Assembly: GCA_015063165.1 (NCBI GenBank)
Contig: SUSZ01000002.1
Location: 36,517 to 100,516 of the forward strand
From: Thermoplasmata archaeon
GTDB taxonomy: Archaea; Thermoplasmatota; Thermoplasmata; Methanomassiliicoccales; Methanomethylophilaceae
Reading direction: 5' to 3'
DNA length: 64,000 bases
Shown here: piece after piece, positions 8,375 through 54,837 of the stretch
How positions within the stretch are numbered: position 1 is the first letter of the stretch
Layout: every line of letters begins with the position of its first letter
Notes under the pieces: model-generated
The model's input: the letters and a program-made list of their open reading frames with translations, nothing else
Database searches by the model: none
Told to the model about the DNA's origin: nothing
Translations under genes and position numbers: made by a program

Positions 8375-8411
8375 GCACACAGTATATTGCGGATATATAT
8401 CAAAATGATTA

Positions 8412-9269: not shown

Positions 9270-9425
9270 AAGTAGGGCCGGGGTACGGACGGCTTCCGGA
9301 TCATGTCCGAGCCCGTCCCTTGGATACCAGTATTCGATATTCAATATAAAATTGTATTGGATGTATTTGCCATATCCTGGATTGAAGCAGTATATAACTA
9401 ATCGAGCTGCTGGACGATACGAAGA

Positions 9426-19751: not shown

Positions 19752-20111
19752 ATGAGCAGCAAAAAGACGAACCCCCAGCTCGTCGCCACCATTGACAACC
19801 TCAAGGCGATGACCAGGGAGAACGAAGCCGCTATCTGGCGAGACATCGCGCTTAGGCTCGAGAAACCCAAGAGGAACTGGGCCGAAGCGAATCTCAGCAA
19901 ACTCGAGAGATATGCCGCGGACGGAGAGACCATCATCGTCCCCGGTAAGGTCCTCGCAGCAGGTAGCATCAGCAAGAAGATCACCGTGGCCGCATACAGC
20001 TTCTCCGAGGCTGCAGCTTGCGCTATTGTGGCCGCAGGCGGAAAGACCATGTCCCTCGAGGAGCTCGCAAAGGCCAACCCCAAGGGAACCGGCGTCAGGA
20101 TCATGAGGTGA
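19752..20111 (+). CDS. rpl18e: 50S ribosomal protein L18e
   Basis: 119 aa. TNPQLVATIDNLK...WRDIALRLEKPKRN...IVPGKVLAAG, typical of archaeal L18e. Confidence 0.9.
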   Translation: MSSKKTNPQLVATIDNLKAMTRENEAAIWRDIALRLEKPKRNWAEANLSKLERYAADGETIIVPGKVLAAGSISKKITVAAYSFSEAAACAIVAAGGKTMSLEELAKANPKGTGVRIMR

Positions 20112-20113
20112 TT

Positions 20114-20542
20114 ATGATGGTTACAGTTATCGACGGAAGGAACCTCGTCCACGGAAGGCTCGCTAGCATCATCGCGGAGAGGATCATGGACGGCGAGGAG
20201 ATCGTCGTTCTCAATGCCGAAGCCATCGTCATCACCGGAGTCAAGGAGAACGTTTTCCAGGACTTCAGGGCGAAGGTCATCCGCGGAGACACCACCAAGA
20301 GGAAGGGACCTTTCTACCCCCGCAGGGCAGATCTCCTGTTCAAGAGGTGCGTCAGGGGAATGATTCCCTGGACTACGAGCAGCGGAAGGGACGCTTACAG
20401 GAGGCTTCATGTCTTCGTCGGCACCCCCAAGCAGTTCGAGGATGTCGAGAAGGAGAGGCCCGCTGAGGCTTGCAGAAAGATCACCGGTAAATACACGACC
20501 CTGGGAGCCGTTTCCAAATTCCTGGGTTCCAATGTGAGATGA
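20114..20542 (+). CDS. rpl13: 50S ribosomal protein L13
   Basis: Start MMVTVIDGRNLVHGRLASIIAERI. The track ORF from 20018 is an upstream extension overlapping L18e. Confidence 0.9.
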   Translation: MMVTVIDGRNLVHGRLASIIAERIMDGEEIVVLNAEAIVITGVKENVFQDFRAKVIRGDTTKRKGPFYPRRADLLFKRCVRGMIPWTTSSGRDAYRRLHVFVGTPKQFEDVEKERPAEACRKITGKYTTLGAVSKFLGSNVR

Positions 20543-20546
20543 TCCC

Positions 20547-20948
20547 ATGGTTGAGTGCGTAAACACAAGCGGAAAGAGGAAGACCGCAATCGCAAGGGCG
20601 GTCGTCAAGGCCGGTACCGGCAAGGTCACCATCAACAAGGTCCCCATAGACGTCTTCACCCCTGAGCTCGCCAGGCTCAAGATCGAGGAGCCCCTCGGAC
20701 TTGTCCCTGAGAAGGCACAGAATGTCGACATCGCCGTTCTCGTCAACGGCGGAGGGGTCATGGGACAGGCGGCTGCCGCAAGGACCGCCATCGCCAGGGG
20801 ACTCGTGGAGTTCTACAAGGACGAGGAGATGGAAACCGTCTTCAGGGCCTACGACAGGACCCTGATCATCAACGATGACAGGCGCAAGCTCCCCAAGAAC
20901 CCGCTTGGACCCGGTGCCCGTGCCAAGAAGCAGAAGTCCTACCGTTGA
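20547..20948 (+). CDS. rps9: 30S ribosomal protein S9
   Basis: 133 aa. GKRKTAIARAVVKAGTGKVTIN...GGGVMGQAAAARTAIARGL...DDRRKLPKNPLGPGARAKKQKSYR. Confidence 0.95.
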   Translation: MVECVNTSGKRKTAIARAVVKAGTGKVTINKVPIDVFTPELARLKIEEPLGLVPEKAQNVDIAVLVNGGGVMGQAAAARTAIARGLVEFYKDEEMETVFRAYDRTLIINDDRRKLPKNPLGPGARAKKQKSYR

Positions 20949-20957: not shown

Positions 20958-21149
20958 ATGATAATTCCGGTTAGATGTTTCACATGTGGCAAAGTCGTAG
21001 GCTCTGCCTACAAGCCGTACGTTGATCGCGTCAGGAACGGCGAGAATCCCAAAGCGGTCCTCGACGATCTTGGATTCGAGAGGTACTGCTGCCGTAGGAT
21101 GATCGTGGCTCACGCCGATCTGATCGGAGAAATTGCTCCTCTCGGATGA
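20958..21149 (+). CDS. rpoN: DNA-directed RNA polymerase subunit N (Rpo10)
   Basis: 63 aa. [15 protein letters not shown]...YCCRRM zinc-binding motif. Confidence 0.95.
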
Positions 21150-22305: not shown

Positions 22306-22378
22306 GGGCCCGTGGGGTAGCTTGGTATCCTTCGTGCTTGGGGTGCACGTAACTCCAGTTCAAATCTGGGCGGGCCCA
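22306..22378 (+). tRNA. tRNA-Pro (anticodon GGG)
   Basis: Manual cloverleaf: acceptor GGGCCCG/CGGGCCC. D arm GGGT..TCCT (3 bp, 13:22 unpaired). Anticodon stem CGTGC/GCACG with loop TTGGGGT. T arm TCCAG-TTCAAAT-CTGGG. Discriminator A. CCA is not fully encoded (ACCT). Confidence 0.9.
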
Positions 22379-22558: not shown

Positions 22559-22864
22559 TCACTCAATCTTCAGCAATCCTGAGAAGTTGGTCATGTCCAG
22601 AACGGCCTTGACCTCCTTGTTCACGTTGACCAGCTTGATCCCGTTCTTGTCTTCCATTAGCTCGTCCGCGTTCAGCAGGGACCTAAGCCCGGCCGACGAG
22701 ATGTACGACACGTTCGACATGTCGAATATCAGCGAGGCAGCTGATGCGGCCTCCCTCTCGACGACTTCGTCCAGCTCGGGAGCGGTGACGTAGTCGATGT
22801 TACCTTTGGGCGATATGGTGGTCATGCCGTCTTTCTTCTCTATTCCTATCTCCATGATGTTCAC
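22559..22864 (-). CDS. STAS-domain protein (SpoIIAA/RsbV-like anti-sigma-factor antagonist)
   Basis: 101 aa, GTG start. FDMSNVSYISSAGLRSLL carries the phosphorylatable Ser motif. GTGA overlap with the upstream gene stop. Confidence 0.85.
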   Translation of the reverse strand: MNIMEIGIEKKDGMTTISPKGNIDYVTAPELDEVVEREAASAASLIFDMSNVSYISSAGLRSLLNADELMEDKNGIKLVNVNKEVKAVLDMTNFSGLLKIE

Positions 22865-24672
22865 ATCTCCTTCTCTAACTTCAATATGTTGCGGTCGCCT
22901 TCGCGAACGTAAGAGACGTCGTCACATATCTTCTTCACCAGCATTATACCGAGCCCTCCCTTCCTACGCTCCTTGAAGCTGAGGATCGGATCAGGATCCT
23001 CGCGTTCGAGCGGGTTGAACGGGATTCCCCAGTCGGTGAACGTGATGCGGACAGCTCCGTTGATGACGTCCGTGGTGACCAGGACGTCCCCCTTCTCTTC
23101 CTCGTCCTTATACGCGTACATGTCGATGTTCGCATAGATCTCGGAGCAGGCGGTCTCCATCTCGGTGATGGTCCTGGCAGAGCATCCCGCCTCGCTCATC
23201 CTCTGCTTAATGCGTCCCATGACCTTCTCGTAGCCCTGGTTGTCCGCGCGGACCCTTATCCCTTCGTCCGGCTCTATGTCGTAGGGATGGGTGTACACGA
23301 TGGACATCATGGTCATGTCGTCGCTCTGGTCGGCGCTTCCCACGAAGTCCGACACGTCCGATTTCACCTTGGCGATGGTCTCGGCGGAACCTGCATCGGC
23401 TACGGACGAGAGCGACTTCTCGAGGCGATCCTCCTTGAACATGTCGCCGTCGGTCCTGGCGGCCTCCGTGACGCCGTCCGTGTAGAGGAAGATCCCGTCC
23501 CCGACGTCCAGGTGGAGATGATGCCTGTTGTAGCTCATCCTCTTTTTCCGTCCGAACACGAAATCCGGCTGGGACCTGAGCATCTCGTACTTACCGCCCT
23601 TGCGTATGAAAGGCGGGTTGTGTCCCGCGTTGACGTATGTCACGTCCCCGGTCCTGAGGTTTATGACCCCGATCCAGACCGTGACGAAGTACTTCATCGA
23701 GTTATTGGCGGAGAGCTCCCTGTTGGCCTTCTCCATGGCCTTATCCAGGTCTCCCCCGGCCTGCACGTTGGACCTTATCAGGGCCATGGATGTAGCCATG
23801 AACAGGGAGGCTGGGAGCCCCTTCCCGGAGACGTCGGCTATCACCACAGCGAGATGTTCGTCGCCTACCACGAAGCAGTCATAGAAGTCTCCGCCAACCT
23901 CTTTGGCGGCTGACATCGACGAGGACACGTCGCAGTAGGGCTTGCATGGGAAATCTGTGATGAGCAGGCCCTGCTGTATCCCTCTGGCGTTCGACATCTC
24001 CTTCTCTATACCTGTCCGCTCCCTCATCAGGTCGGACTGCCACTTGGAGTCGGTTATGCCGATCTTCACGGAATAGTAGCATGGGATGCAGACCAGGAGG
24101 TAGATGAGAAGGTCGACGGTGTAGAACGTCTTGATCAGCGAGAACAGCCTGTCCCATCTGGTCATGCCCTGGTACATCCCGATTATTATCGTTTCCAGGC
24201 CGTCATAGATGAGGAGCCCTGCGAGCATCAGCAATGCCCCTATGACGATCGTGCCCATTATGAAGTTGATGCGGTAGTAGAGACAGCTCGAGACCACCGG
24301 CAGAAGCATCAGGATCATCATCGAATAGTCCATCACGGCGATGATGGTGAAAGAGTTGATCAGTATCGATCCGATCAGGAGATATTTCGTCCACCAGTGG
24401 CTTCCTAAGAGAAAACAGATTATCGCGCTGGAAGCCATGAAGGCCATGGTAAGGTAAACGAGGTCTATGTAGTCGGCGACCCCGTAGCGTCCTTCCCCGG
24501 TGAAGATCCATGCAACGTTCATGACCAGGACCGCGACTATTATGATCTCGACGATCCTGTCCGCGCGTCCGTCTCTGTACTGGACTATCTCGTCCAGGAT
24601 TTCGCTGTCGGAAGGTTTCTTGAACATTGAACAGAAGCGCGTTCTCTTCGTTTCATCCGTGGTCTCGGCCAT
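22861..24672 (-). CDS. membrane-anchored PP2C (SpoIIE/RsbU-type) phosphatase fused to an RsbW/SpoIIAB-type HATPase serine kinase
   Basis: Start chosen at MAETTDETKR (24670-24672). The track ORF extends into the PPTase gene. About 6 TM helices are followed by PP2C motifs GGDFYD, VIADVSGKG, LYTDGVTEA, DDMTMM. A C-terminal HATPase_c-like region follows (ETACSEIYANIDMYAY...GGLGIMLVKKICDDV). Confidence 0.85.
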   Translation of the reverse strand: MAETTDETKRTRFCSMFKKPSDSEILDEIVQYRDGRADRIVEIIIVAVLVMNVAWIFTGEGRYGVADYIDLVYLTMAFMASSAIICFLLGSHWWTKYLLIGSILINSFTIIAVMDYSMMILMLLPVVSSCLYYRINFIMGTIVIGALLMLAGLLIYDGLETIIIGMYQGMTRWDRLFSLIKTFYTVDLLIYLLVCIPCYYSVKIGITDSKWQSDLMRERTGIEKEMSNARGIQQGLLITDFPCKPYCDVSSSMSAAKEVGGDFYDCFVVGDEHLAVVIADVSGKGLPASLFMATSMALIRSNVQAGGDLDKAMEKANRELSANNSMKYFVTVWIGVINLRTGDVTYVNAGHNPPFIRKGGKYEMLRSQPDFVFGRKKRMSYNRHHLHLDVGDGIFLYTDGVTEAARTDGDMFKEDRLEKSLSSVADAGSAETIAKVKSDVSDFVGSADQSDDMTMMSIVYTHPYDIEPDEGIRVRADNQGYEKVMGRIKQRMSEAGCSARTITEMETACSEIYANIDMYAYKDEEEKGDVLVTTDVINGAVRITFTDWGIPFNPLEREDPDPILSFKERRKGGLGIMLVKKICDDVSYVREGDRNILKLEKEM

Positions 24673-24733
24673 TCGCTCATCCCTCGGGCGGGTATTTGAT
24701 TCGTATGCTCTTGATTCGATAAAATAGGGCGTA

Positions 24734-25405
24734 TCAGACGAGGTCGGAAAGGTCCACGAATCTGAGAGAAGGTTCGAATTCCGGATTCGTCGAGCATACG
24801 GCGCACCTGTATCCGTCGCCGGGGTCGTACTCCTTGAAATGGTATTCCCTGCCGTCGACGTGCTGCTCCACGCGTATGGGATCGCCGAGGTCGATGCGGA
24901 AGGAGTCAAGCTGGAGGGACATCCCAAGGCCTGTAGCCTTCATGAAGCTCTCCTTCAGGGTCCAGTACCTGCAGAACATCCTCGGCATCTCCTCGGTGCC
25001 CTGAAGGGCCGCTATGGCGTCGTATTCCGAGCCGTGGAAGAACCTCTCGGCCATGTCGAGCCCCGCGTACCTTATCGTCTCGACGTCGCATCCGACCTCG
25101 GAGTCGGAGACGGAGCAGGCCACGCGCTCCTCTGAGTGCGACAGGTTGAAGCGCATCCAGGAGCCTTCCAGGAACGGCTTACCGTTCTTTCCTTCTCCGA
25201 CGGATATCTTATCCGGATCCTCTCCCAGGTCCTCCATGGCTTTGCGAAGGAGGGTCCAGACGCCTATGCAGAGACGTCTGTCCTTCAGGAACAGGAATCT
25301 GTCCGCCTTCTCCCTGCGATACGCCGGCATCTGGCGGTACAGTGCGGAATAGACCGACGGTTCTTCCAAGCTATAGATGTCGGAATAGTATGTCCTGGTC
25401 TTCAT
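24734..25405 (-). CDS. Sfp-type 4'-phosphopantetheinyl transferase
   Basis: 223 aa. GKPFL...FNLSHSEERVACSVS...GCDVE and WTLKESFMKATG motifs. Confidence 0.85.
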   Translation of the reverse strand: MKTRTYYSDIYSLEEPSVYSALYRQMPAYRREKADRFLFLKDRRLCIGVWTLLRKAMEDLGEDPDKISVGEGKNGKPFLEGSWMRFNLSHSEERVACSVSDSEVGCDVETIRYAGLDMAERFFHGSEYDAIAALQGTEEMPRMFCRYWTLKESFMKATGLGMSLQLDSFRIDLGDPIRVEQHVDGREYHFKEYDPGDGYRCAVCSTNPEFEPSLRFVDLSDLV

Positions 25406-25950
25406 GTCCTGCTCCGTTGTCGGAATCTCGGTTCCTAGGCAAGAGGATTAAGGCGAACCACACGAAATAGATTTCAGGACGGGGAATCACTCCATATGAT
25501 CGGACTATTGTATTTTTACTGCAACCTGGTGGTTCTGAGCTATTCCGAGAAGGATACGCGTAAGCTCTTCGCCCGGATCACGGGCCACGACAACTACGGG
25601 GAGCTCGACGTCGTCGACAACGATCCCGAGGACCTGGTGTTGAGTATAGCCTGCATCCACGACGGCGTATGCGGCGGGAAAAAGCCCTGCCGTCCCGTAG
25701 AGCACGTCTTTCCATGGGGGAGGCCGCTTCTCTGTTCGGAGTTCAGGACATGGGCCCGCTGATGTTGGACCGCTTGCTATCGTTCGGGACTCCCGAGGAG
25801 ATACGCAGGCTCCTTTCGGACGGGACCGAGGATCCGGTCCTCTGCCGTGTCGGAGGCAGGGCTGATAAACGAGCCGAAGAAGCAGATCGATAATGATTGC
25901 TCCTTCGGGTAACAGGCAGGGCAGGAGGGATTCCCGCCCCGCCAAGGGTT

Positions 25951-28900
25951 TCATCTGAAGAATCTCAGGGACTTCAGCGTCTTGAACGCCTTGTCGATGT
26001 ATCCGTCGGATATTATCGGCCACGAGAATCCCAGCCTGTACAGCGCCTTCACGGTGTAGGAGTCGTCCGCCGGCACGAACCTGCGGGTCTCTCCGGCGTT
26101 TCCGAGGTAGCTTATCAGACCTGAGACGTACTCCCCGTTGGCCTCGTCCTTCATGGCCTCCATGAACCTGCGGTCGAACTCCTTCCTGGAGACGACCTCG
26201 ACGGGCATTCCGTTGTCCCTCATGACCTTCAGGACGTTCGCCATGTGCACCTTGTGGCAGTTGTTGACGTGGAACACGGTGAACTGCTCCGGGGTTCCGG
26301 CGAGGATCACGACCGCTTTGGCGACCATGTCTATCGGCGAGAACTCCACCTCGGTGTCCATGTCGGTCACGGAGAAGAATCCCAGCTTCACATAGGACTT
26401 CATCTGCTTCATGAAGGCGTTGGTGTTGAAGTTGATCTGGAACTCTCCGTCGCTGTCGCGGCTCATAAGGTTCCCGACGCGGATGATCTTCGCCTTCAGG
26501 CCGTCCGGAATGGCTTTTATCATCTCCTCCTCGGCCATGAACTTGGAGTGGGCGTACTTGTTGTCCAGGTTCTGTCCGAAGTCGAGCTCGTTCTCCTTCA
26601 GCTTCCTGTCCTCGGGGATGCTGCCGTTCACGGATTCTCCAGCCACGCTCTCGGTCGAGATCTGGACCAGCATGGAGCCGGTGCTCTCGGCGACCTTGAT
26701 CAGGTTCTGGACCCCTCCGACGTTGACCCTGTCGATGGAGTCGTCGGCCGCGAAGTGCTTGACCACGGCGGCGCAGTTGATGATCGTGTCGAACTCGCAG
26801 CCGTCCAGCTTCTCCAGGAGGTTCTGGTCGGTGATGTCCCCGTCTATGATGGTGACATCCTTCAGGGCGTCCTCGGAAGCCATCCCGCCGAAGTAGTACA
26901 TGAACATCGTCTTGACTCTCTCCTCGGATGTCTGGCCCTTTCCGCTCCTCACCAGGCAGTACACGTGCTTGGCGTTCCTCCTCAGGAGCTCGAACAGGAC
27001 GTGGGCGCCCAGGTATCCGGTCGCTCCGGTCAGGAGTATCCTGCGGGGGCTGTGGGAGCTTATGGAGTCCAGGCTGCTCTCGACGTTGGCCGCCAGGGGG
27101 CTCTCGTCTATGGTGTCCCTCTTCTCCTCCTTGCTGGCTTCCCCGAGCGTGCCGATGAATCTTGCCAGGGCCTCGGGCGAGGGGTTGTCGAAGACGTTCT
27201 TGTAGACTATCGGGAACCCGGAGTTCATACAGTTGAGGACGAGCTTGGACGCGGAGATGGACGTTCCGCCGATCTCGAAGAAGTTGTCGTCGGCGTTGAC
27301 CTTCTTCAGGCCGAGGACGTTCGCGAATATCTCGCAGAGCTTTGTCTCCACCGGGTCCGAAGGCTCCCTTCCGGCCTTCCTGGGCTCGGAGGACGGCTCG
27401 GGAAGCCTCCTCCTGTCCACCTTGCCGTTGACCGTCATCGGGATGGAATCCAGCTGGATGAAGTGTGCGGGGACCATGTACGGGGGCTTGGTGCTCCTGA
27501 TGAAATCTGCGAGTCCGTTGAAGTCAACGGGGGAGTCCGATACCACGTAGGCTGTGATGGACTTCCCTCCAGCGGGGTCGTCGAAGGCCTTCACGGTGGC
27601 GTCTTTTATGCCCTGGTAGCTGCGGACGGCTCCTTCCACCTCCCCGAGCTCGATCCTGAACCCGCGGACCTTGACCATTCCGTCGCGTCTGCCGATGTAG
27701 TCGATGTTGCCGTCGGGAAGCAGGCGGACCACGTCTCCGGTCCTGTACAGGCGGTCGAAGCCGGGTTCGTCCGAGAACGGATTCCTGGTCACCGTCTTGG
27801 CGGTCTTCTCGGGGTTGTTGAGGTATTCCCTGAACACCTGGGGGCTGCTGATGCACAGCTCTCCGCAGCATCCGACCGGGACGATCCTGTCGCTCTTGTC
27901 CAGGACGTACAGCCTCACGTTGGCGTTCGGCTTTCCGATCGGGAGCAGGGGGCTGTCGTCCTTCACTATGAACGTGGTGACGTTCACGGTGCATTCGGTC
28001 GGTCCGTAGATGTTGTAGAAGTCCACCCATTCGGGCGGGTTCAGCGGCACCAGCCTCTCCCCTCCCGCCATGAACTTCTTAAGGGATCTGCACTTGGTGC
28101 TCTCCATGAACATCCTCCCCATCTGGGTGGTCATGAATCCGTGGGTGATTCCGTTGCTGATGAAGTATCTGTCCACCTCGGCCAGGTCCTTGCGCATGTC
28201 CTCGGGGATTATGTGCACGGTTGCACCGGCGGAGAGCGAAGAGTGGAGGTCCATCATGCACGCGTCGAACCCGTAGCTGGCGTAGGAGGCGTATCTGGAC
28301 GTGCTCGTGAGACCCACCTCGGGGATCATCCAGTTCAGGAAGCTGGCTATGTTCCTGTGCTCCAGGACGCATCCCTTGGGGGTCCCGGTGGTTCCGGATG
28401 TGTACAGGATTATGAAGGCGTCCTCGGGGGAAGGCGCCAGGGATGTCACGTCGGGACGCTTGCCGGTGCAGAGCCCGTCGATCTCGTCCGTGTACAGGAC
28501 GTCTCCCTGATACCCGGAGACGAGTCCGCGGAGGGACCTGTCGGCTATCAGCAGCCTGACTCTGGAGTCCTGCATCATGAACAGCAGGCGCTCTTCCGGG
28601 TATGTCGGGTCCAGAGGCTGGTAGGCCGCTCCGGACTTCACGACTCCCTCGGCGGCCACCACCATGTACACCGACCTGGGAACCAGAACGGCGACGTACT
28701 CGTCCTTGCCGATCCCCTTCGAGTGGATGTAGTCTGCTATGTAGTCCGTCTTCTCGTCCAGCTCTCCGTAGGTCAGGCTGTCGTCGAGATGAACCACGGC
28801 CAGGTTGTCAGGGTGCTCCCTGGCGTTCCTCCTGAACATGTCCACCACGGTGACGGACCTGTCGAACGGGACGTCAGTGTCGTTCATCCTGTCCACTGTC

Positions 28901-31900
28901 GCTATGGTCTTGCTGTCGGTCAGGCTGATCTCGCCGAGCGTCGTGCACGTCGGGAATTCGGATATGGCCTTGTCGAACGACCTGGTGAAGAACTCGATGA
29001 ACTCGGAGGTGAACCTGTCCTTGTCGAACTCCACCATGTACGCGAGCTCGTCGCCGTATTTAGCAACCTGGAACAGTATGGGCTCCTTCTCGCTGGACAG
29101 GCTGACCTGGATCGATTCAGACGGCTTCCCGCAGAACCTGTCGAAGCTGAAGCCGTCGCCCTGGTAGACGAACATCACGTCCGCCTTGACCTCCAGCTCG
29201 CGGCTGACCTCGGCGAAGGAGTAGATGTCGTTGGCCATGCTGTCCAGGATCTGGTCGCTTATCTTCTCGGACAGGCGCAGGGGCGACATGGCGTCGTCGG
29301 AGACGTCGCAGAGGACCGGGAGGGTCTTGACGTACATCGAGACCGAATCCATCGTCCTGGAGTCGCTCCTTCCGTTGTAGATCGTGGTGAATATCGAGTG
29401 CTCGCTGCCGTTGTACTTCGCGAGGACGTAGCCGAAAGCGGCGCACATCAGGCCGTTCATGGTGATCCCGGCTCTCTCGCAGCGCTCGGAAAGCTTCCTC
29501 CCTAGCGAGCCATCGCTCCTCATCAGGAACGTGCTCTCGGCGTTCTGGTCGGGGCGATATCTGTCGCCTTTGGGGAGGGAGTCCCTGTCGTAGCCGGCCA
29601 GGAGTTCGTCGTAGTACTTCTTGGCGCCAGCCAGGGCCTCCGGGGTTCTCTCGTCGGCCTCCTTGAGGGAGGTCTCGAACCCGCTGAACCTCTCGGCCTC
29701 GGGCTTCTCCCCGGCGTATGCCTTGGAGATGTCGTCCGTCAGGACCTTCATGGAGGTTCCGTCGCTGATCATATGGTGCATCTCCAGGAACAGGTACTCC
29801 TTGTCGGCGTGGATGAGCTTGATGCGGAACAGCCTCGATCCCATGAGCCGGAACGGCTTGGCCAGCGTGGGCATCAGGGAGTCGATGGAATCGGCTGTGA
29901 TCTCCTCGATCTCGTCCGCGGAGAACGTCGGGAGGCCCTTCCTGATCAGGCGGATGTCGCCCTTGTCGTTCATGGCCAGCGTGGTCATCATGAACGGGTG
30001 GGCGTTTACCGCCTCGGCGATGGCGGACTTCAGCCTGTCCTTGTCGATGGAGCTGTCGTAGCTGATCAGCAGAGGGATGTTGTACGTGGTGCTGTCCGGC
30101 CTGGCCATGCACTCCACGAAAACGCCTTCCTGGGATTTGGTGAGCGGATAGTCGTCCTGGACCTCGTACGTCTTGGCCGGGACGGAGCTCTCTATCAGCC
30201 TCTCCAGCTTCTCGATGGTGCTGTTGTCCTTGACGTCCTTGGACTTGAACGGGATCCCGAACTCGTCCGAAAGTAGCACGTTGAAGCGGATGCTCCCTAT
30301 AGAAGTGAGCCCGGCCTGGAAAAGGTCCGTCTCTATTCCGAACCTGTCGGTTCTCAGCACCTCGGACGCTATCCTGAATATGCGCTTCTGGATGTCGGTC
30401 TTCGGAGGCGTCGCCTTGCCGAAGTCCATCGTCGGGACTGGGAGCTTTCTCTTGTCGACCTTGCTGTTCACGTTGAGCGGGATGCTGTCCAGCTGCATCG
30501 TCACGGCCGGGACCATGTAAGGAGGCTTGGTCTGGAGGATGAAGCTCTCCAGAGCCTTGATGTCGACCTTTCCATCGGATACGACGTATGCGGCGATCTG
30601 CTTCCCTCCGGCGGGGGCGTCGAACGCCTGGACTGTGGCGTCCTTGATCCCCTTGAACGCGCGGATGGCCCTTTCCACCTCTGTGAGCTCTATCCTGAAT
30701 CCGCGGACCTTGACCATTCCGTCGCGGCGGCCGATGTAGTCGACGTTGCCGTCCGGGAGGAGACGAACGATGTCGCCGGTCTTGTACATCAGGTCATGGT
30801 CTGGACTGTCGGAGTAGGGGTTGTCCACAAGCACCGAAGCGGTCTTGTCGGGGTTGTTCAGGTACCCTCTGAACACCTGCGGCCCGCTTATGCAGAGCTC
30901 TCCGCATGCTCCTGTTGGGACGATCCTGCGGTCCTTGTCCAGCACGTAGACCCTCACGTTGGTGTTCGGCTCCCCTATCGGCAGGAGGGGGCTGTCGTCC
31001 TTCACAAGGAACGATGTGACGCTGACGGTGGTCTCCGTAGGTCCGTACAGGTTGTGGAATTCGAGCCAGTCGGGCGGGGTTATCGGCACCAGGGCCTCTC
31101 CGCCCGTGGAGAAGTGCTTCAGAGATCTGCATTTGGTGCCCTCGATGAACATCCTTCCCATCTGGGTGGTCATGAAGCTGTGCGTCACCTTGTTGTCGAT
31201 AAAGAATTGGTCCATCGCGGCCAGGTCGCTGCGGATCTCGTTGGGTATCACCGCGATGCAGGCTCCGTATGCCAGGGTGACCATCATGTCCATCATGCAG
31301 GCGTCGAAGCCGAAGCTGGCATAGGTGGCGTATCTGGAGCCGGGACCCAGGCCGATCTTCTTGCCGTACCAGTCCGCGAAGGCAGCCATGTTCCTGTTCT
31401 CTATCACGCAGCCTTTTGGCGTCCCGGTGGTTCCAGACGTGTACAGGATGGCGAACGCGTCCTCGGGCGAGGGGGACAGAGGCTTTGCATCCGGAGCGTC
31501 TCCTGCGAACAGACTGTCGAACTCGTCCGTGTACAGGATCTCGCATTCGTGCCCGCTCACCAGCCTCGCCAGCGACCTGTCCGCGATCAGCAGCTTCACG
31601 CCGGAGTCCTGCATCATGAACAGCAGGCGCTCCTCCGGGTACGTCGGGTCCAGAGGCTGGTAGGCCGCTCCGGACTTCACGACTCCCATCGCGGCTATCA
31701 CCATGGTCGCGGACCTGGGGACGAGGACGGAGACGAACTGCTCCTTCCCGATCCCCTTCGATGAGATGTACGATGCGATATGGTCGGTTATCCTGTCCAG
31801 CTCCCCGTAGGAGATCATAGCGTTATCGAACAGGACGGCGTCGGCATCGGGATCATCTTTCGCTCTGGCTCTGAACAAATCGACTATAGTCCTACTCCTG

Positions 31901-34875
31901 TCGTATTCGGAATCGGTCGAGTTAACCTTCTTGACAAGGTCCAGATCATCCTCTCCAGCAACCGTGACATCCCTGAGGGTGGGCGCCTCGAGGAACCCTT
32001 CCGCGCACCTCTCCAAGGTGGACAGGAAGCTCTCCATCATCTCCTTCGAATACACAGATGCGTCATATTCGATGTCCATCAGGAACCCGTCCTTCATCGG
32101 GTATACCTGCACAGTCAGGGGGTTCTTCACGTCCTTTATCTCCATCTGTGAGTCCAGGACGCTCTCGTCCTCCAGTATCCCCTGGTAGGCGAACAGCACG
32201 TCCGATGTGACTCCCATCCTGGAGCTGATCTCCGAGAACGGGAAGATGTCGTTCTGCATCGAAGCTATCAGCTGGTCTCCGGTGCGTCTGACCAGGGCCC
32301 CTGGGCTCTCGTCCAGGTCGAACCTGAATACGACAGGGAGGGTCTTGACCAGCATACCTACGAGGTGGGCGGTCTTCCCGCCCTTCCTTCCGGTGTACAC
32401 GGTGGCATGGCAGGCGTTGTCTGTGCAGTTGAATCTGGACAGCGCGTATCCCATAGCCGATTGGAAGAATGCGTTCTCCGTGGTTCCGGCGGATTCCACG
32501 AACGCCTTGATCTTTTCAGGAGGGACGTCAAGCTTCGACCTCAGGTGGCCTTTGATCCTCTTCTCTCCGTAGACGTCCCTCTGGATGAGCGAGGTACCGT
32601 CCACGTCCGAGAGGAGCTCGTAGTAGTACTTCTCGGCACGACTATAGTCTCCCGAGCTCATGCGTCCTGTCTCCTCCTCGGAGAGGTCGAACATGGTGAA
32701 CGTCTCTGCTACTGGCTCTCCGCCGCCGAGCGCCGTTCCCAGATCGTTCATCAGGACCAGGCTGGAGGAGCCGTCGAACATTATGTGGCTGAAGTCCAGC
32801 AGCAGGGTCTCCGCGTCCCCGGTGTCAAAGACGACTATCCTGTACAGCTCCTTCGACATGTCGAACGGCTTCACGAAGGATTCGCGGTACGCCTCCAGGT
32901 CGGCTTCGGAGCCTTCCATGCGCTCTATCCTGACTTCCGCGTCCGGATGCGGCACCATGCACATCTCTCCCTTGGTGTCGGGTTCGATGGTGCATTTCAG
33001 TCCAGGGTGGGCCTCGATGACCTTTCTCACTATAGTCTCCAAGCTCTTTCCGGAAAGCCGGTCCTTCTCGAACCTGGCCTGCATCGGGAGGTTGTACATC
33101 ACGGTCTCGGGGTCGCTGTAGCACGCCTGGTACACCCCCATCTGCGACCTCGTGAGCAGGTACCTGTCCTTGAGGGCCTTCTTCTCGATCGGAGCCGAGG
33201 TGGCCTTCTCCACGAGCTTGGAGATTATCTCGTCGGATACGGAGGCTATCGAGCATCCGCTAAGCATGCCGGCCACGTCAAGGTCCACTCCGAACCTTCC
33301 CATGACCTCCGATGTGAACTTGATCGCGGTGAGGGAGCTGAGTCCGCAGTACACGAGATTCTCGTCGTAGCGGAAGTCGTCCCTTTCGGTGAGGCTCTTC
33401 AGAATCTCCCTCACGCCTTTGGTGACCGCGTTCTCCTCGAAGTCCGTGGGTCCGGCTGTGACGGCGGAGCCGCTTCCGGGCTCGGTGGGGTCCGGGAGGG
33501 ATTTCCGGTCGATCTTTCCGCTGGGGTTCAGCGGGAGCCTGTCCATGCGGACGAGATAGGCTGGAACCATGTATCCAGGCAGCTTGCTCTTGAGGTAGTC
33601 GCGTACGGCCTCCACGGGGATGTCCGTCGCCGCGGCGTAGTACGCGCACAGGAAGGTCTGGTCGTCGGTGCCCTTGAAGTCCTTGACCGCGGCCTGGACG
33701 ATCCCGGGAAGGGTCATCATCACTCCGGAGATCTCTCCGGGCTCCACGCGCTGGCCGTTTATGTTCACCATCCAGTCGTTGCGCTCCATGTACAGCAGGT
33801 TCCCGTCCTCGAGGCGTCTTCCGATGTCCCCGGTGCGGACCATCGTGTCGTGTCCGTCGCGGTCCTTGAACGGGTTGGGGACGAACGCCTTGGCGGTGGC
33901 TTCGGGAAGGTTGAGGTATCCGTCGGAGAAGTGCCCTGTGAAGCAGATCTCGCCCTCCTCAGCCTCGTTCCCGTTCTCGTCCAGGATGTAGGCGCATACT
34001 CCCTTCAGCGGCTTTCCCAGAGGGGTCTTGTCGTACGCCTTGTCGAGGAAGAATCCGGTGACCATGCTGCAGGTCTCGGACGATCCGTAGCCGTTCACGA
34101 TGGTGAAGTCGTCGGACCATACCTTCACGGCGCGCTCGCCGCCTATGAGGACCAGACGGAGCGTCTTCCTTTTCTGGCGGTAGTATGGGAGCATGGCCGG
34201 CGCTATGAATGTCAATGTGATCTCGTTGTCGGAGTTGAATTCGGAGAGCTTGTTGAGATTTATGCGGATGTCGGCCGGGACGATGTAGTCAGGGCATCCC
34301 AGAGCCAGGAGATTGATGTTGATGGTGGTTCCGACCACGAACGTGAACGCAGCAGGGTTGGCGAATCTGTCGTTCTCTTGGATTTTGAAGAGGTCGTCGA
34401 TCCTGTCCACATAGGAAGATATGGACAGATGCGAATGCACCACCCCTTTGGGCCTGCCGGTGGAGCCGGACGTGTAGATTATGAACGCTATGTTCTTCGG
34501 CGACGGCGTCACGGGGTCGCAGTCCAGCGTCTCGGCCCCGATCCTCTCCAGGTATTCGGGGGTCACGCGGATCTTTGCCTTGCAATCCTCGGCGATGTAC
34601 GCCTTCCTGTCCTCCGGATAGGAGCTGTCGGAAGGGACGAAGAACCCTCCCAGCATCCATGCGCCCAGCATGAATCCCATGTACTCCTTGCATCTGGGGA
34701 GCTCTATCACCACGCCGTCCCCTCTGCAGAATCCGTCCTTCTTCAAGGTCGCCGCCACGCGGTACGAGTAGCTGCGCAGCTCTTCGTACGTGAACGAGCC
34801 CTTGTCGGTCCAGACGGCGGTCTTGTTCGGAGTGGATTCTGCATTGTCCAAAATCATCTCGAGTATGTTCCGCAT
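25951..34875 (-). CDS. nonribosomal peptide synthetase, three modules, A-T-C-A-T-C-A-T-R
   Basis: 2974 aa. Three AMP-binding domains (YTSGSTGRPKG / YTSGTTGTPKG twice; YGPTE; TGD; GK(I/V)D(R/K)). Three carrier domains (CGLSSL, AGLTSI, GGTSIS). Two condensation domains (SHIMFDG, HHMISDG). A C-terminal thioester reductase (TGATGYLG, YAHSK). Confidence 0.97.
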   Translation of the reverse strand: MRNILEMILDNAESTPNKTAVWTDKGSFTYEELRSYSYRVAATLKKDGFCRGDGVVIELPRCKEYMGFMLGAWMLGGFFVPSDSSYPEDRKAYIAEDCKAKIRVTPEYLERIGAETLDCDPVTPSPKNIAFIIYTSGSTGRPKGVVHSHLSISSYVDRIDDLFKIQENDRFANPAAFTFVVGTTININLLALGCPDYIVPADIRINLNKLSEFNSDNEITLTFIAPAMLPYYRQKRKTLRLVLIGGERAVKVWSDDFTIVNGYGSSETCSMVTGFFLDKAYDKTPLGKPLKGVCAYILDENGNEAEEGEICFTGHFSDGYLNLPEATAKAFVPNPFKDRDGHDTMVRTGDIGRRLEDGNLLYMERNDWMVNINGQRVEPGEISGVMMTLPGIVQAAVKDFKGTDDQTFLCAYYAAATDIPVEAVRDYLKSKLPGYMVPAYLVRMDRLPLNPSGKIDRKSLPDPTEPGSGSAVTAGPTDFEENAVTKGVREILKSLTERDDFRYDENLVYCGLSSLTAIKFTSEVMGRFGVDLDVAGMLSGCSIASVSDEIISKLVEKATSAPIEKKALKDRYLLTRSQMGVYQACYSDPETVMYNLPMQARFEKDRLSGKSLETIVRKVIEAHPGLKCTIEPDTKGEMCMVPHPDAEVRIERMEGSEADLEAYRESFVKPFDMSKELYRIVVFDTGDAETLLLDFSHIMFDGSSSLVLMNDLGTALGGGEPVAETFTMFDLSEEETGRMSSGDYSRAEKYYYELLSDVDGTSLIQRDVYGEKRIKGHLRSKLDVPPEKIKAFVESAGTTENAFFQSAMGYALSRFNCTDNACHATVYTGRKGGKTAHLVGMLVKTLPVVFRFDLDESPGALVRRTGDQLIASMQNDIFPFSEISSRMGVTSDVLFAYQGILEDESVLDSQMEIKDVKNPLTVQVYPMKDGFLMDIEYDASVYSKEMMESFLSTLERCAEGFLEAPTLRDVTVAGEDDLDLVKKVNSTDSEYDRSRTIVDLFRARAKDDPDADAVLFDNAMISYGELDRITDHIASYISSKGIGKEQFVSVLVPRSATMVIAAMGVVKSGAAYQPLDPTYPEERLLFMMQDSGVKLLIADRSLARLVSGHECEILYTDEFDSLFAGDAPDAKPLSPSPEDAFAILYTSGTTGTPKGCVIENRNMAAFADWYGKKIGLGPGSRYATYASFGFDACMMDMMVTLAYGACIAVIPNEIRSDLAAMDQFFIDNKVTHSFMTTQMGRMFIEGTKCRSLKHFSTGGEALVPITPPDWLEFHNLYGPTETTVSVTSFLVKDDSPLLPIGEPNTNVRVYVLDKDRRIVPTGACGELCISGPQVFRGYLNNPDKTASVLVDNPYSDSPDHDLMYKTGDIVRLLPDGNVDYIGRRDGMVKVRGFRIELTEVERAIRAFKGIKDATVQAFDAPAGGKQIAAYVVSDGKVDIKALESFILQTKPPYMVPAVTMQLDSIPLNVNSKVDKRKLPVPTMDFGKATPPKTDIQKRIFRIASEVLRTDRFGIETDLFQAGLTSIGSIRFNVLLSDEFGIPFKSKDVKDNSTIEKLERLIESSVPAKTYEVQDDYPLTKSQEGVFVECMARPDSTTYNIPLLISYDSSIDKDRLKSAIAEAVNAHPFMMTTLAMNDKGDIRLIRKGLPTFSADEIEEITADSIDSLMPTLAKPFRLMGSRLFRIKLIHADKEYLFLEMHHMISDGTSMKVLTDDISKAYAGEKPEAERFSGFETSLKEADERTPEALAGAKKYYDELLAGYDRDSLPKGDRYRPDQNAESTFLMRSDGSLGRKLSERCERAGITMNGLMCAAFGYVLAKYNGSEHSIFTTIYNGRSDSRTMDSVSMYVKTLPVLCDVSDDAMSPLRLSEKISDQILDSMANDIYSFAEVSRELEVKADVMFVYQGDGFSFDRFCGKPSESIQVSLSSEKEPILFQVAKYGDELAYMVEFDKDRFTSEFIEFFTRSFDKAISEFPTCTTLGEISLTDSKTIATVDRMNDTDVPFDRSVTVVDMFRRNAREHPDNLAVVHLDDSLTYGELDEKTDYIADYIHSKGIGKDEYVAVLVPRSVYMVVAAEGVVKSGAAYQPLDPTYPEERLLFMMQDSRVRLLIADRSLRGLVSGYQGDVLYTDEIDGLCTGKRPDVTSLAPSPEDAFIILYTSGTTGTPKGCVLEHRNIASFLNWMIPEVGLTSTSRYASYASYGFDACMMDLHSSLSAGATVHIIPEDMRKDLAEVDRYFISNGITHGFMTTQMGRMFMESTKCRSLKKFMAGGERLVPLNPPEWVDFYNIYGPTECTVNVTTFIVKDDSPLLPIGKPNANVRLYVLDKSDRIVPVGCCGELCISSPQVFREYLNNPEKTAKTVTRNPFSDEPGFDRLYRTGDVVRLLPDGNIDYIGRRDGMVKVRGFRIELGEVEGAVRSYQGIKDATVKAFDDPAGGKSITAYVVSDSPVDFNGLADFIRSTKPPYMVPAHFIQLDSIPMTVNGKVDRRRLPEPSSEPRKAGREPSDPVETKLCEIFANVLGLKKVNADDNFFEIGGTSISASKLVLNCMNSGFPIVYKNVFDNPSPEALARFIGTLGEASKEEKRDTIDESPLAANVESSLDSISSHSPRRILLTGATGYLGAHVLFELLRRNAKHVYCLVRSGKGQTSEERVKTMFMYYFGGMASEDALKDVTIIDGDITDQNLLEKLDGCEFDTIINCAAVVKHFAADDSIDRVNVGGVQNLIKVAESTGSMLVQISTESVAGESVNGSIPEDRKLKENELDFGQNLDNKYAHSKFMAEEEMIKAIPDGLKAKIIRVGNLMSRDSDGEFQINFNTNAFMKQMKSYVKLGFFSVTDMDTEVEFSPIDMVAKAVVILAGTPEQFTVFHVNNCHKVHMANVLKVMRDNGMPVEVVSRKEFDRRFMEAMKDEANGEYVSGLISYLGNAGETRRFVPADDSYTVKALYRLGFSWPIISDGYIDKAFKTLKSLRFFR
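25954..27054 (-). other. NRPS terminal thioester reductase (R/TD) domain
   Basis: aa ~2608-2974. Rossmann motif LLTGATGYLG (2614-2623), SDR catalytic YAHSK (2774-2778). No thioesterase domain is present. Confidence 0.85.
27151..27363 (-). other. NRPS carrier domain 3
   Basis: aa ~2505-2575. FFEIGGTSISASKL, predicted Ppant serine aa 2539. Confidence 0.8.
27397..28869 (-). other. NRPS adenylation domain A3
   Basis: aa ~2003-2493. LYTSGTTGTPKGC, YGFDACMMD, YGPTECT, YRTGD, NGKVDRRR. Confidence 0.8.
28564..28648. repeat. intragenic near-identical tract (module 3 copy)
   Basis: 85 nt, 83/85 identical to 31603-31687 (offset 3039 nt, equal to 1013 codons). Encodes GVVKSGAAYQPLDPTYPEERLLFMMQDS in both modules. 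Confidence 0.9.
28891..30168 (-). other. NRPS condensation domain C2
   Basis: aa ~1570-1995. LTKSQEGVF, canonical HHMISDG (aa 1700-1706). Confidence 0.8.
30181..30402 (-). other. NRPS carrier domain 2
   Basis: aa ~1492-1565. LFQAGLTSIGSIRF, predicted Ppant serine S525 of that block (aa 1525). Confidence 0.75.
30430..31908 (-). other. NRPS adenylation domain A2
   Basis: aa ~990-1482. LYTSGTTGTPKGC, FGFDACMMD (Asp1191 present), YGPTETT, YKTGD, NSKVDKRK. Confidence 0.8.
31603..31687. repeat. intragenic near-identical tract (module 2 copy)
   Basis: Partner of 28564-28648. Confidence 0.9.
31921..33183 (-). other. NRPS condensation domain C1
   Basis: aa ~565-985. LTRSQMGVY start, active-site variant SHIMFDG (aa 696-702). 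Confidence 0.75.
33211..33444 (-). other. NRPS carrier (T/PCP) domain 1
   Basis: aa ~478-555. LVYCGLSSLTAIKF, predicted Ppant serine S514. Confidence 0.75.
33490..34875 (-). other. NRPS adenylation domain A1 (loading module; boundaries approximate)
   Basis: aa 1-462. Motifs FIIYTSGSTGRPKGV, NGYGSSETC, VRTGDIG, PSGKIDRK. The residue 37 positions after the A3 lysine is Val180, not Asp. Confidence 0.8.
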
Positions 34876-34879
34876 ATGC

Positions 34880-35209
34880 TCATGTCCCGATGTGTGATGT
34901 TATCACCACATAGTAGTAAAACCCTAACGCATGGATTTTTTTTGAAAGAATGTCACATTCGGAATGCTTTTTCAAGATGATCTCGGACACTCCTTTCCCA
35001 TTGATTCCGAGGGCAATCCATGCTGGCCCTTTATCCAGAGGCTCCGAGACGTATCCTTCTGAAACCATCTGCTTCAGGTCGTGGTGTCCGAGGAACTCGG
35101 CCAAGGGGCATCTCTCATGCTCTTCCCGAAGCACCTCGGGGGGTGTAGGGGTACCGCCCACAAGCCTTCTGAAGTAGAGCATTCCGTCGGTACTGATACG
35201 TGCATACAC
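34880..35209 (-). CDS. doubtful small ORF abutting the NRPS start
   Basis: 109 codons with a GTG start. Its TGA stop lies 4 nt before the NRPS ATG. The segment ...LKQMVSEGYVSEPLDKGPAWIALGINGKG looks loosely winged-helix-like. The region is AT-rich, with a T8 run inside and a T9 run just upstream, so this could be a degraded gene or only leader sequence. Confidence 0.25.
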   Translation of the reverse strand: MYARISTDGMLYFRRLVGGTPTPPEVLREEHERCPLAEFLGHHDLKQMVSEGYVSEPLDKGPAWIALGINGKGVSEIILKKHSECDILSKKIHALGFYYYVVITSHIGT

Positions 35210-36883: not shown

Positions 36884-38158
36884 ATGCATCTACCCAAGAA
36901 CCCTCCCGATATCTTCGCGATGTTCAAAGATGAGTCTAGAACAGAGGCCACTCTTTCGGAAGGTGTCGGTGAGTATGCGAGGGAGTTCAACAGGAAGTAT
37001 CTTCATTGGTCGGAGGTCCGCATGAGGGACACCGGGCCTTATGATCCAGATATGGTCTGGGCCAGGATGAAGCTGCCGCGCATGGACGGACCGGTTCTGG
37101 TGTTCGGTAGAACGCATTATCGCTATTTCGTGTCAGATAGAATACTAAAAGGGCTCCATGAGTTCGATCTGAGGGCTTCGGCAGGGGTTCTTCCGGATAA
37201 TTTGGATTTCCATAGGAAGGTGTATTATGCGGTCAGCTCATTGATGGAGGAGTCGATAGCTTCCAGCCAGATGGAAGGCGCTGTCACCACGACGAAGAAA
37301 GCCAAGGAGATGCTCCGCAGGAACGCCCGCCCCAGAGACAGATCCGAGCGCATGATAACGAACAACTACAAGGCCATGCAGTTCATCAAGGACAACCTGG
37401 ATCAAGATCTCACCCCCGAGCTGATAAAGGACATCCACAGGATCGTCACCGACGGCACGCTGGACGAGAGGTTCACGGGCAGGTTCCGGGACAACGATGA
37501 CGTAGTGGTGCAGGATCCGTTGACGGGCGAGGTTTTCCATCAGCCTGTTCCTGTAAAGGATATCGAAGAGTCTATTGAGGGATTATGCGAATTCATGAAC
37601 GACGAGAGCGAGTTCATGCATCCGGTTCTGAAGGGGATCGTGTTTCATTACGTGTTGGCATACGTCCATCCTTTCGAGGACGGCAACGGGCGTGTCGCAC
37701 GCAGCCTGTTCTACTGGTACGAGCTGAAGAGCGGGTACTGGATCATGGAATATCTCGCCCTTTCCAAAATCATTAAAGATCACAAGGGGAAATACGAGGA
37801 GGCGTTCGTATTCGGCGAGACCGATGACAACGATATGACGTATTTCGTTCTCTACAACCTCAAAGCCCTGACGGATTCTATGGACCTGTTCGAGGGATAT
37901 CTGAGGAGAAAGATGGAGGATGAGCGCTCCAAGAGGGACAGGCTGTCCGTTCTAGGTCTGAACGACAGGCAGATCGGTATCGTCATGAGCCTCATGGATG
38001 GCGAGACGGCCACGGTTAGGTCGGTCCAGAATCAATATGGCGTGGCGCTTAACACGTCCCGGTCCGACATCAAGGGATTGAAGGACATGGGCCTGATAGT
38101 TGAATCGGGAAGGGACGTGAACATGAAGGTTTATTCCTGGTCAGGCAAGAGCGTCTGA
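36884..38158 (+). CDS. Fic-family protein (AMPylase-type) with N-terminal inhibitory motif and C-terminal winged-helix-like domain
   Basis: 424 aa. Fic motif HPFEDGNGRVARSLFYW. An SxxxEG inhibitory-helix motif (SSQMEGA) lies upstream. The C-terminal ~70 aa are HTH-like. Confidence 0.9.
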   Translation: MHLPKNPPDIFAMFKDESRTEATLSEGVGEYAREFNRKYLHWSEVRMRDTGPYDPDMVWARMKLPRMDGPVLVFGRTHYRYFVSDRILKGLHEFDLRASAGVLPDNLDFHRKVYYAVSSLMEESIASSQMEGAVTTTKKAKEMLRRNARPRDRSERMITNNYKAMQFIKDNLDQDLTPELIKDIHRIVTDGTLDERFTGRFRDNDDVVVQDPLTGEVFHQPVPVKDIEESIEGLCEFMNDESEFMHPVLKGIVFHYVLAYVHPFEDGNGRVARSLFYWYELKSGYWIMEYLALSKIIKDHKGKYEEAFVFGETDDNDMTYFVLYNLKALTDSMDLFEGYLRRKMEDERSKRDRLSVLGLNDRQIGIVMSLMDGETATVRSVQNQYGVALNTSRSDIKGLKDMGLIVESGRDVNMKVYSWSGKSV

Positions 38159-43691: not shown

Positions 43692-43695
43692 TAAG

Positions 43696-54811: not shown

Positions 54812-54837
54812 GCCACTTGCAAAAGCGTAGTAATCGG

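Follow-up and report, generated by a model that had tools for sequence, protein, structure and literature searches.

A native reductase-terminated peptide synthetase locus in Methanomethylophilaceae, probably for an N-capped dipeptide aldehyde, linked to partner-switching genes

Introduction

Gut bacteria carry a family of reductase-terminated nonribosomal peptide synthetases (NRPSs), described by Guo et al. 2017 and, for ruminopeptin, by Schneider & Balskus 2018 (both via the reviews PMC8210680 and PMC12327764), whose characterised members make dipeptide aldehydes, some of them N-acyl-stabilised and others isolated as pyrazinones (PMC8210680, PMC12327764). Here we describe an archaeal relative, a 2974-aa NRPS encoded on the reverse strand at 25951..34875 of a 64,000-nt stretch of contig SUSZ01000002.1 from a rumen Thermoplasmata archaeon of the Methanomethylophilaceae (the whole stretch is called the window below). 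It shares with the bacterial family full-length homology to the C-A-T-C-A-T-R architecture (C, condensation; A, adenylation; T, carrier; R, reductase) at 38-52% identity, the terminal R domain and the restriction to gut and rumen, and N-acyl caps have been described for some of the bacterial members; it differs in its archaeal host and in a cap that would be brought in by an A-T-C module instead of a starter C domain. The primary papers define a set of 47 clusters, of which the window NRPS is a candidate relative.

Among archaea, the closest described systems are Mru_0068 and Mru_0351 of Methanobrevibacter ruminantium, also a rumen methanogen with reductase-terminated NRPSs and the source of the nearest solved R structure (PMC2812497, PMC8024701). 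That structure, 6VTJ, is the didomain of peptidyl carrier protein and R domain of Mru_0351, and the M. ruminantium NRPS products were 'still unknown' in 2021 (PMC8024701), in agreement with the original prediction for this stretch, which knew of no structurally assigned archaeal NRPS product. Leahy et al. 2010 reported two serine phosphatase genes around mru0068, together with those of an anti-sigma-factor antagonist and a MatE pump, described a separate cluster of phosphopantetheinyl transferase (PPTase), phosphatase, antagonist and kinase genes, and suggested environment sensing and NRPS regulation (PMC2812497); the linkage of NRPS genes with phosphatase and antagonist genes has been known since 2010. 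The M. ruminantium NRPSs resemble the one studied here in their associated serine phosphatase, STAS antagonist, kinase and PPTase genes, and a bacterial origin was inferred for them (PMC2812497). They belong, however, to the Methanobacteriales and not the Methanomassiliicoccales; Mru_0068, compared by description, is C-A-T-C-A-T-R, whereas the window NRPS opens with an A-T loader lacking Asp235, and the MatE exporters that adjoin the NRPSs of strain M1 (PMC2812497) have no counterpart in the window.

AusA, the aureusimine/phevalin synthetase of Staphylococcus aureus, has the same A-T-C-A-T-R core and an aldehyde-releasing R domain, but it is dimodular and leaves a free N-terminus that leads to a pyrazinone, whereas the extra capping module found here should block cyclisation. 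A domains for keto acids, of the cereulide, valinomycin and StsA type, likewise carry an aliphatic residue in place of Asp235 (PMC10949194, PMC11355689); their modules are A-KR-T (KR, ketoreductase) and ester-forming, whereas the window module has no KR and its C1 domain is expected to form an amide. The pyrrolysine-containing NRPS of ISO4-G1 (5216 aa; PMC4824259), compared by description only, comes from the same order and from the rumen and has no assigned function, but its size is far greater and its gene contains an in-frame UAG, whereas the window gene has no in-frame TAG and terminates with TGA. The view, put forward in the original prediction, that NRPSs are rare in Archaea does not hold for the rumen: 687 NRPS clusters have been counted in 125 rumen archaeal genomes (PMC8241843), an NRPS has been reported in the rumen Methanomassiliicoccales isolate ISO4-G1 (PMC4824259), and NCBI already lists the exact window protein under MBE6519678.1 (Thermoplasmata archaeon).

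The family, its release chemistry, its accessory genes and the exact protein are thus already known. We consider it probable, with appreciable room for doubt, that the window holds a native and functional four-gene cassette (NRPS, PPTase, a SpoIIE/RsbW-like fusion and a STAS protein), derived from an old bacterial transfer, which would direct the synthesis of an N-capped dipeptide aldehyde.

Results

The NRPS open reading frame (ORF) comprises 8925 nt (25951..34875, minus strand), starts with ATG, ends with TGA and has 2974 codons. A Pfam scan of the whole protein returned three AMP-binding, three AMP-binding_C, two Condensation, three PP-binding and one NAD_binding_4 domains; segment-wise scans then fixed the order, and the core motifs were read in the translation, giving A-T-C-A-T-C-A-T-R as originally predicted. 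From the N-terminus, and all on the minus strand, the protein consists of the loading domain A1 (residues 1-465; 33481..34875), a divergent carrier T1 that matches PP-binding weakly (residues ~480-556; 33208..33438; Ser in CGLSSL), C1 (residues 570-968; 31972..33168; SHIMFDG), A2 (residues 1001-1480; 30436..31875), T2 (residues 1498-1561; 30193..30384; Ser in GLTSI), C2 (residues 1572-1974; 28954..30162; HHMISDG), A3 (residues 2014-2485; 27421..28836), T3 (residues 2512-2574; 27154..27342; Ser in GGTSI) and the terminal thioester reductase R (residues 2615-2974; 25954..27033; TGATGYLG and YAHSK). The ORF is a genuine trimodular NRPS ending in a reductase, and its modules 2 and 3 are a tandem duplication: the A3-coding stretch 27536..28629 has a copy in A2 at 30575..31668, with a period of 3039 nt and 76-78% nucleotide identity.

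When residues 1564-2974 (C2-A3-T3-R) were used as query and the best 120 relatives taken, almost all of these were 2400-2460 aa long and, by piecewise BLAST, C-A-T-C-A-T-R proteins, with named sources in Bacteroidales, Clostridia, Saccharofermentans, Fibrobacter, Thermoguttaceae and Methanomethylophilaceae/Thermoplasmata. Residues 563-2974 of the window NRPS align end to end with these ~2400-aa relatives, with the domains matched in order. Judged by homology, these proteins make up one NRPS family of gut and rumen habitats, found in several bacterial phyla and a single archaeal family. The best NCBIfam model was AusA (NF047350), with 1373 bits over residues 847-2964, well short of the equivalog cut-off of 2500. 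The N-terminal starter C domain of the C-A-T-C-A-T-R family is not present in the window NRPS, which opens with A1-T1; this A-T pair ahead of the first C domain makes the protein ~515 aa longer than the family norm. An A-T-C start was also found in uncharacterised bacterial proteins.

The aspartate at position 235 of A domains binds the alpha-amino group. Pocket positions were read from a MAFFT alignment anchored on GrsA-PheA, whose reference sequence yields DAWTIAAICK at the canonical positions. In A1 the code is VVTFLGGSMK, with Val replacing Asp235, and a HMMER alignment to LgrA places 'FTFV' opposite 'FSFD'; all six full-length archaeal orthologs have Val or Ile at position 235. Keto-acid A domains usually carry an aliphatic residue there (PMC10949194). 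An exhaustive search of representatives with A1-T1-C1 was dominated, by summed scores, by giant NRPSs, and the informative matches were those of ~3000 aa aligned from residue 1. The search found several bacterial A-T-C-A-T-C-A-T-R proteins of 2950-3000 aa and, in addition, a 4009-aa Clostridia protein; their first A domains all read F-x-F-[IV]-[AV]-[GSA]. A1 is 38-48% identical to these bacterial F-x-F-[IV] loaders and ~30% identical to ordinary A domains, so the loader type is a recognisable subfamily and not specific to archaea. The nearest relative of A1-T1-C1 is a bacterial protein, P0187, with 48/46/42% identity over the three domains; C1 is about 28-30% identical to the N-terminal C domains of the C-A-T-C-A-T-R relatives, against 42% to C1 of P0187. 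The P0187 protein itself (L021, 6365-13801, Firmicutes-like) is A-T-C-A-T-C-T-R, its last A domain gone and its C, T and R domains intact, and its locus carries PPTase, STAS and SpoIIE/HATPase partners too.

Together, these data suggest that A1 is probably a loader of a non-amino-acid and not an amino-acid module. The description of the NRPS as trimodular in the original prediction is right as to the number of modules; since A1 lacks Asp235, the three modules probably stand for a cap plus two residues and not for a tripeptide. A true tripeptide, with A1 loading an unusual amino acid whose binding is independent of Asp235 (such as a beta-, N-alkylated or D-amino acid) and a tripeptide aldehyde that may cyclise, is the alternative that fares best, and we regard it as unlikely. 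A1 is otherwise a canonical NRPS A domain, nearest to the amino-acid A domains of LgrA, GrsA and TycA, it retains Lys517, present also in A2 and A3 in the MAFFT alignment, and its module has no KR domain, all of which would suit an amino-acid substrate. Its 256 bits on the amino-acid adenylation model TIGR01733 can be read both ways, as a substantial score or as one under the cut-off of 317. The Val/Ile in every archaeal ortholog, the hydrophobic residue in the bacterial F-x-F-[IV] relatives and the tie between aliphatic residues at 235 and keto acids (PMC10949194) argue against a tripeptide, as does the sister architecture, in which a starter C domain at the same place implies an acyl cap (also PMC2812497).

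With A1 taken as the probable loader of a cap, the other two A domains would supply the residues. The A3 code, DAMFMGIVNK, is identical in 6/6 full-length orthologs, even at 58% overall identity, whereas the A2 code (DAMFSGLVSK in the window) varies among them. The residue that would form the aldehyde appears to be fixed, with drift in the middle residue and in the cap.

The R domain is an extended short-chain dehydrogenase/reductase (SDR; NAD_binding_4 at 6e-37) with the NAD(P)H motif TGATGYLG and the catalytic YAHSK, scoring 159 bits on TIGR01746, whose cut-off of 213 was not reached. Against solved structures it matched 6VTJ/6VTZ best (E 3e-67), then AusA-R (4F6C; 2e-37) and then MxaA (2e-22). 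These matches bear on the possibility that the R domain reduces by four electrons, so that the same assembly line would release an N-capped dipeptide alcohol. R domains of the same fold do release alcohols in MxaA, which is among the matches, and in an M. tuberculosis NRPS, and sequence does not tell the two-electron (aldehyde) from the four-electron (alcohol) mode (PMC8024701). The aldehyde-producing AusA-R is, however, much closer than MxaA, and the characterised members of the gut family release aldehydes (PMC8210680, PMC12327764), and alcohol release is, in our judgement, unlikely, with an N-capped dipeptide aldehyde as the preferred product.

Further genes of the cassette lie next to the NRPS. 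As originally predicted, a PPTase gene lies about 0.55 kb downstream: it encodes a 223-aa Sfp-type protein with ACPS and AASDHPPT_N domains (24734..25405, minus strand) and begins 545 nt past the NRPS stop. It is not the only dedicated partner, as had been thought. It is followed on the same strand by a membrane sensor fusion (22861..24672; 603 aa as called) with ~6 transmembrane helices, a PP2C (SpoIIE) phosphatase domain (Pfam E-value 1e-42) and an RsbW-like kinase domain (HATPase_c_2, 1.5e-17), and by an anti-sigma-antagonist-like STAS protein (22559..22864; 1e-15). The fusion has the motifs GGDFYD, DVSGKG, YTDGVTE and SDDMT and the kinase G-box, and the STAS protein keeps the phosphorylatable-Ser motif YISSAGLR; with these catalytic motifs intact, both look active. 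The phosphatase, kinase and STAS parts of a partner-switching module of the RsbU/RsbW/RsbV type are thus all present.

A SpoIIE/HATPase gene and then a STAS gene stand directly 3' of the NRPS in every archaeal locus whose sequence extends that far (L004, L005, L006, L007, L008, L010, L011, L013 and L014). The PPTase gene is less constant: it lies between the NRPS and SpoIIE/STAS, after them, upstream, or is absent nearby, adjoining the NRPS in L004, L005, L007, L014, L016 and L021 and not lying between NRPS and SpoIIE in L010/L013, L006, L008 and L011. SpoIIE/HATPase and STAS are therefore linked more tightly to the NRPS than the PPTase is. Bacterial clusters have the pair as well, namely the Bacteroidales loci L016 and L019, the Firmicutes-like L021, where the order is NRPS-PPTase-STAS-HAMP/SpoIIE/HATPase, and L017; L018 has STAS only, and the Saccharofermentans and Fibrobacter loci have neither SpoIIE/HATPase nor STAS. 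The identity rankings of STAS, fusion and PPTase mirror that of the NRPS, and STAS proteins are 76.5% identical across the two archaeal NRPS classes described below. No sigma gene was seen in the NRPS cluster. Archaea are not known to have bacterial-type sigma factors.

No thioesterase, MbtH or exporter domain was found by Pfam in the ORFs within about 5 kb of the NRPS, in line with the original prediction. Bacterial homolog clusters carry RND, MMPL or MatE efflux pumps. In the Fibrobacter locus L020 (GCA_024398875.1, 4672-19239) two C-A-T-C-A-T-R NRPS genes stand in tandem with a MatE exporter before each and a 614-aa protein without Pfam match between the first NRPS and the second MatE gene; SpoIIE/STAS genes are absent from it.

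Genes for FecCD-type ABC importers (Peripla_BP_2, FecCD, ABC_tran) occur in the window at 40384-45637, in L011 at 6478-10403, in L004 at 24216-25872 and in L006 at 8227-9862. They lie on different sides of the NRPS and are partly different paralogs, which could reflect either chance in transporter-rich genomes or a functional link. We considered a metallophore that works with these importers, which are near the NRPS in the window, L011 and L004 and immediately upstream of it in L006, and note that the reductase-terminated MxcG (myxochelin) is among the partial NCBIfam matches. Such a product is very improbable: chelator-building genes, for catechols, hydroxamates or others, are lacking, the A-domain pockets are hydrophobic, the transporters are different paralogs between loci (32-37% identity) and absent from L005, L010/L013 and L014, the bacterial homolog clusters have the efflux pumps instead, and importers of this type are frequent in methanogen genomes in general.

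The cassette is native to its genome. Five contigs, drawn from ENA and JGI assemblies made independently, encode the identical NRPS protein, and the long ones share neighbours (the flank-bearing contigs are of the 50-200 kb size class, the longest 154.7 kb). The 90% cluster of MBE6519678.1 has 32 members, and the named ones are nearly all Methanomethylophilaceae metagenome-assembled genomes (MAGs). A scan of reference genomes found the NRPS only in Methanomassiliicoccales/Methanomethylophilaceae MAGs, at 58-97% identity, from sheep, goat, buffalo, roe deer and horse gut; the sources of the close-relative MAGs are rumen, omasum, abomasum or horse faeces. The gene has a GC content of 0.597 and a GC3 of 0.858, its codon usage correlates with that of housekeeping genes (r=0.93), and its tetranucleotide profile correlates at 0.90 with the remainder of the window, inside the range of same-sized chunks (0.885-0.958). 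Of 28 scored window genes, 26 stop at TGA, one at TAA and one, Rrf2 (57769..58203), at TAG, an avoidance of TAG as expected for the pyrrolysine-decoding Methanomassiliicoccales lineage. The claims that GC and stop codon match the flanks and that the gene is no foreign contig join are both borne out.

Five full-length NRPS orthologs have no internal stops. Among close orthologs the whole gene has a dN/dS of 0.11-0.16 and each of the nine domains a value within 0.05-0.28, with the minimum in A3 (0.05-0.09), and the function of the NRPS has probably been retained under purifying selection. Two JGI contigs of 9.2 kb each (L002 and L003, from 3300036554 and 3300036551) carry the identical NRPS gene, and their ends fall 6-7 nt ahead of its ATG and about 230-265 nt past its stop. 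Ends at the gene edges suggest co-occurring strains with the same gene in different flanks, which fits the MAG-to-MAG variation in upstream regions and in PPTase position; the fragmentation of NRPS genes in many MAGs can be put down to the 3-kb internal module repeat together with such strain-variable flanks. That the NRPS might be bacterial DNA joined to archaeal flanks in assembly or binning, or a decaying relic, as the two contigs stopping at gene edges and the fragmented genes could intimate, we regard as next to impossible, given the identical protein with the same flanks on long contigs of independent assemblies, orthologous NRPS-PPTase-SpoIIE-STAS blocks in independent MAG projects, native codon usage and tetranucleotide signature, full-length orthologs under purifying selection and the account just given of the fragmentation.

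The part of the window that is of foreign composition is another one. A 1082-aa PLD-domain protein (53396-56644, minus strand) has a GC3 of 0.55 and a codon correlation of 0.58, against about 0.8 and 0.8-0.9 in its neighbours, and in the region of 57-62 kb the GC content falls to 47-52%.

A neighbour-joining tree of 1391 aligned columns of C2-A3-T3-R, rooted at its midpoint and with most tips lacking a taxon label, placed the archaeal NRPSs in a single clade among bacterial branches. The clade divides into an A-T-C class (the window, L004, L005, L010, P0001, L006 and L007) and a starter-C class (P0002-P0009 and P0012); in a bootstrap of 45 taxa and 200 replicates each class and their union were recovered in 200/200, and the placement of P0011 as sister of the union, with 55/200, is unsupported. 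This placement and the bacterial-type accessory genes favour one old transfer from gut or rumen bacteria, with N-terminal remodelling afterwards in the archaeal lineage, where one subclade would have had the usual starter C domain replaced by A-T-C. An in-situ swap at a chromosomal locus shared by the two classes found no support, as L013 and L014 have non-orthologous flanking genes. P0001 (2459 aa, 88% identical) was considered as a variant without A1-T1 and rejected: 219 nt separate the start of its gene from a contig end, and the gene is incomplete. Outside the NRPS-SpoIIE-STAS block the flanks differ even between close relatives; a block of Flg_new, Peripla_BP_2, PQQ_2 and FecCD genes is downstream of STAS in L011 and upstream of the NRPS, in divergent orientation, in the window.

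Discussion

The order of domains suggests the following route. The PPTase would prime T1, T2 and T3. A1 would adenylate a carboxylic acid without an alpha-amine, most likely an alpha-keto acid or else a short, branched or aryl acid abundant in rumen fluid, and load it on T1; C1 would couple this cap to the A2-loaded amino acid, which would vary between species, and C2 would add the A3-loaded amino acid, selected by an invariant code with a hydrophobic pocket. The SDR-type R domain would then release the chain with NAD(P)H as an N-capped dipeptide aldehyde, predicted to be an electrophilic molecule of the protease-inhibitor type that, with its N-terminus blocked, could not cyclise to a pyrazinone. 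The phosphatase/kinase-STAS pair might act as a partner-switching sensor, tying production or activity to a signal from the membrane or from outside the cell.

Several observations weigh against this proposal. T1 passes the PP-binding threshold of 0.01 and is missed at 1e-5, whereas T2 and T3 are clear. In the window clade C1 reads SHxxxDG and not HHxxxDG; it keeps the catalytic second His, and the motif is HHIMFDG in L006/L007. Whole-protein and segment-wise Pfam scans found no KR or other domain between A1 and T1, which means that an alpha-keto acid would not be reduced or that the substrate would be another type of acid. With the tools used, the codes of A2 and A3 could be assigned to no specific amino acids, no exporter was found in the window NRPS cluster, and product chemistry has been reported for no archaeal member. 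Likewise, the mode of release is not settled by sequence (PMC8024701), and a neighbour-joining tree with a midpoint root, one region and mostly unlabelled tips makes the direction of transfer a matter of inference and not of proof.

A more far-reaching version would have the acyl-CoA-dependent starter C domain swapped, in this archaeal lineage, for a self-sufficient, ATP-driven A-T-C loader of a free rumen acid (keto, branched-chain or aryl), which caps a peptide-aldehyde protease inhibitor, with sigma-free control by the phosphatase/kinase-STAS pair, for example at the protein level. Taken as a whole we rate it as unlikely. If true, it would give a cross-domain regulatory logic for the whole gut NRPS family, which nobody has explained so far.

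The window NRPS extends a known gut and rumen family to another methanogen order and leaves the kinds of known systems unchanged. What it adds is modest: Methanomethylophilaceae belong to this family, an A-T-C loader lacking Asp235 stands where the starter C domain usually is, the code for the last residue is invariant, and the partner-switching pair is shown to accompany the NRPS in archaea and bacteria alike. Rumen methanogens are targets of methane mitigation, and archaeal NRPS products are so far unidentified; a compact cluster with its own PPTase, under purifying selection and present in many ruminant metagenomes, is tractable for heterologous expression. Moreover, the two close archaeal classes, differing mainly at the N-terminus (A-T-C versus starter C), amount to a natural experiment on the choice of cap, and the phosphatase/kinase-STAS link in archaea and bacteria poses a concrete regulatory question, namely how such a module acts in an organism without sigma factors.

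Additional features of the window

Of the flanking genes named in the original prediction, most were recovered. L18e, L13 and S9 (19752..20948, plus strand) flank the NRPS cluster, RpoN (20958..21149, plus strand; by direct reading of the translation, which includes CCRRM) follows them, and aspartokinase and DapA genes are present in the window; the A24 peptidase had no Pfam match among the window ORFs scanned.

A tRNA-Pro(GGG) gene (22306..22378, plus strand) lies between PfkB and STAS, at the STAS-side boundary of the cluster. It was identified by ARAGORN and a local Rfam scan (48.8 bits), and its omission from the whole-window Rfam scan at gathering thresholds was a false negative. A tRNA-targeted island was considered and rejected, as the window has neither an att-like or partial tRNA copy nor a long direct or inverted repeat at the second boundary, and no tRNA was found at the other NRPS loci.

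Upstream of the NRPS, an ORF of 100-109 aa (34880..35209, minus strand) stops 4 nt short of the NRPS start. It was weighed as an MbtH-like or regulatory partner and rejected, having no Pfam match and being conserved in part, and in L005 alone. In the stretch 34876-34940, ~20 nt upstream of the NRPS ATG, there is a palindrome, GTGATAACATCAC, with imperfect conservation in L005; in L004 and L010 the sequence upstream of the NRPS is different. In the spacer between NRPS and PPTase, the ORFs 25496..25762 (plus strand) and 25505..26023 (minus strand) were set aside, having no family match, and the plus-strand ORF is unmatched in all other loci.

Three AAA_14/DUF4143 ATPase genes occur in the window (11436-12731, 35390-36769 and 59361-60593), and one such gene, with a Fic gene (36884..38158), stands directly upstream of the NRPS. 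AAA_14 and Fic families are also found upstream of the NRPS in L014 (4270-5541), and an AAA_14 gene in L007 (1873-3237). Genes at 38625-40370, 41418-43691 and 45639-48572 of the window encode large secreted-type proteins with Flg_new (Listeria-Bacteroides) repeats, a PQQ_2 beta-propeller and leucine-rich repeats of the BspA type; host-associated methanogens typically have such adhesin-like features.

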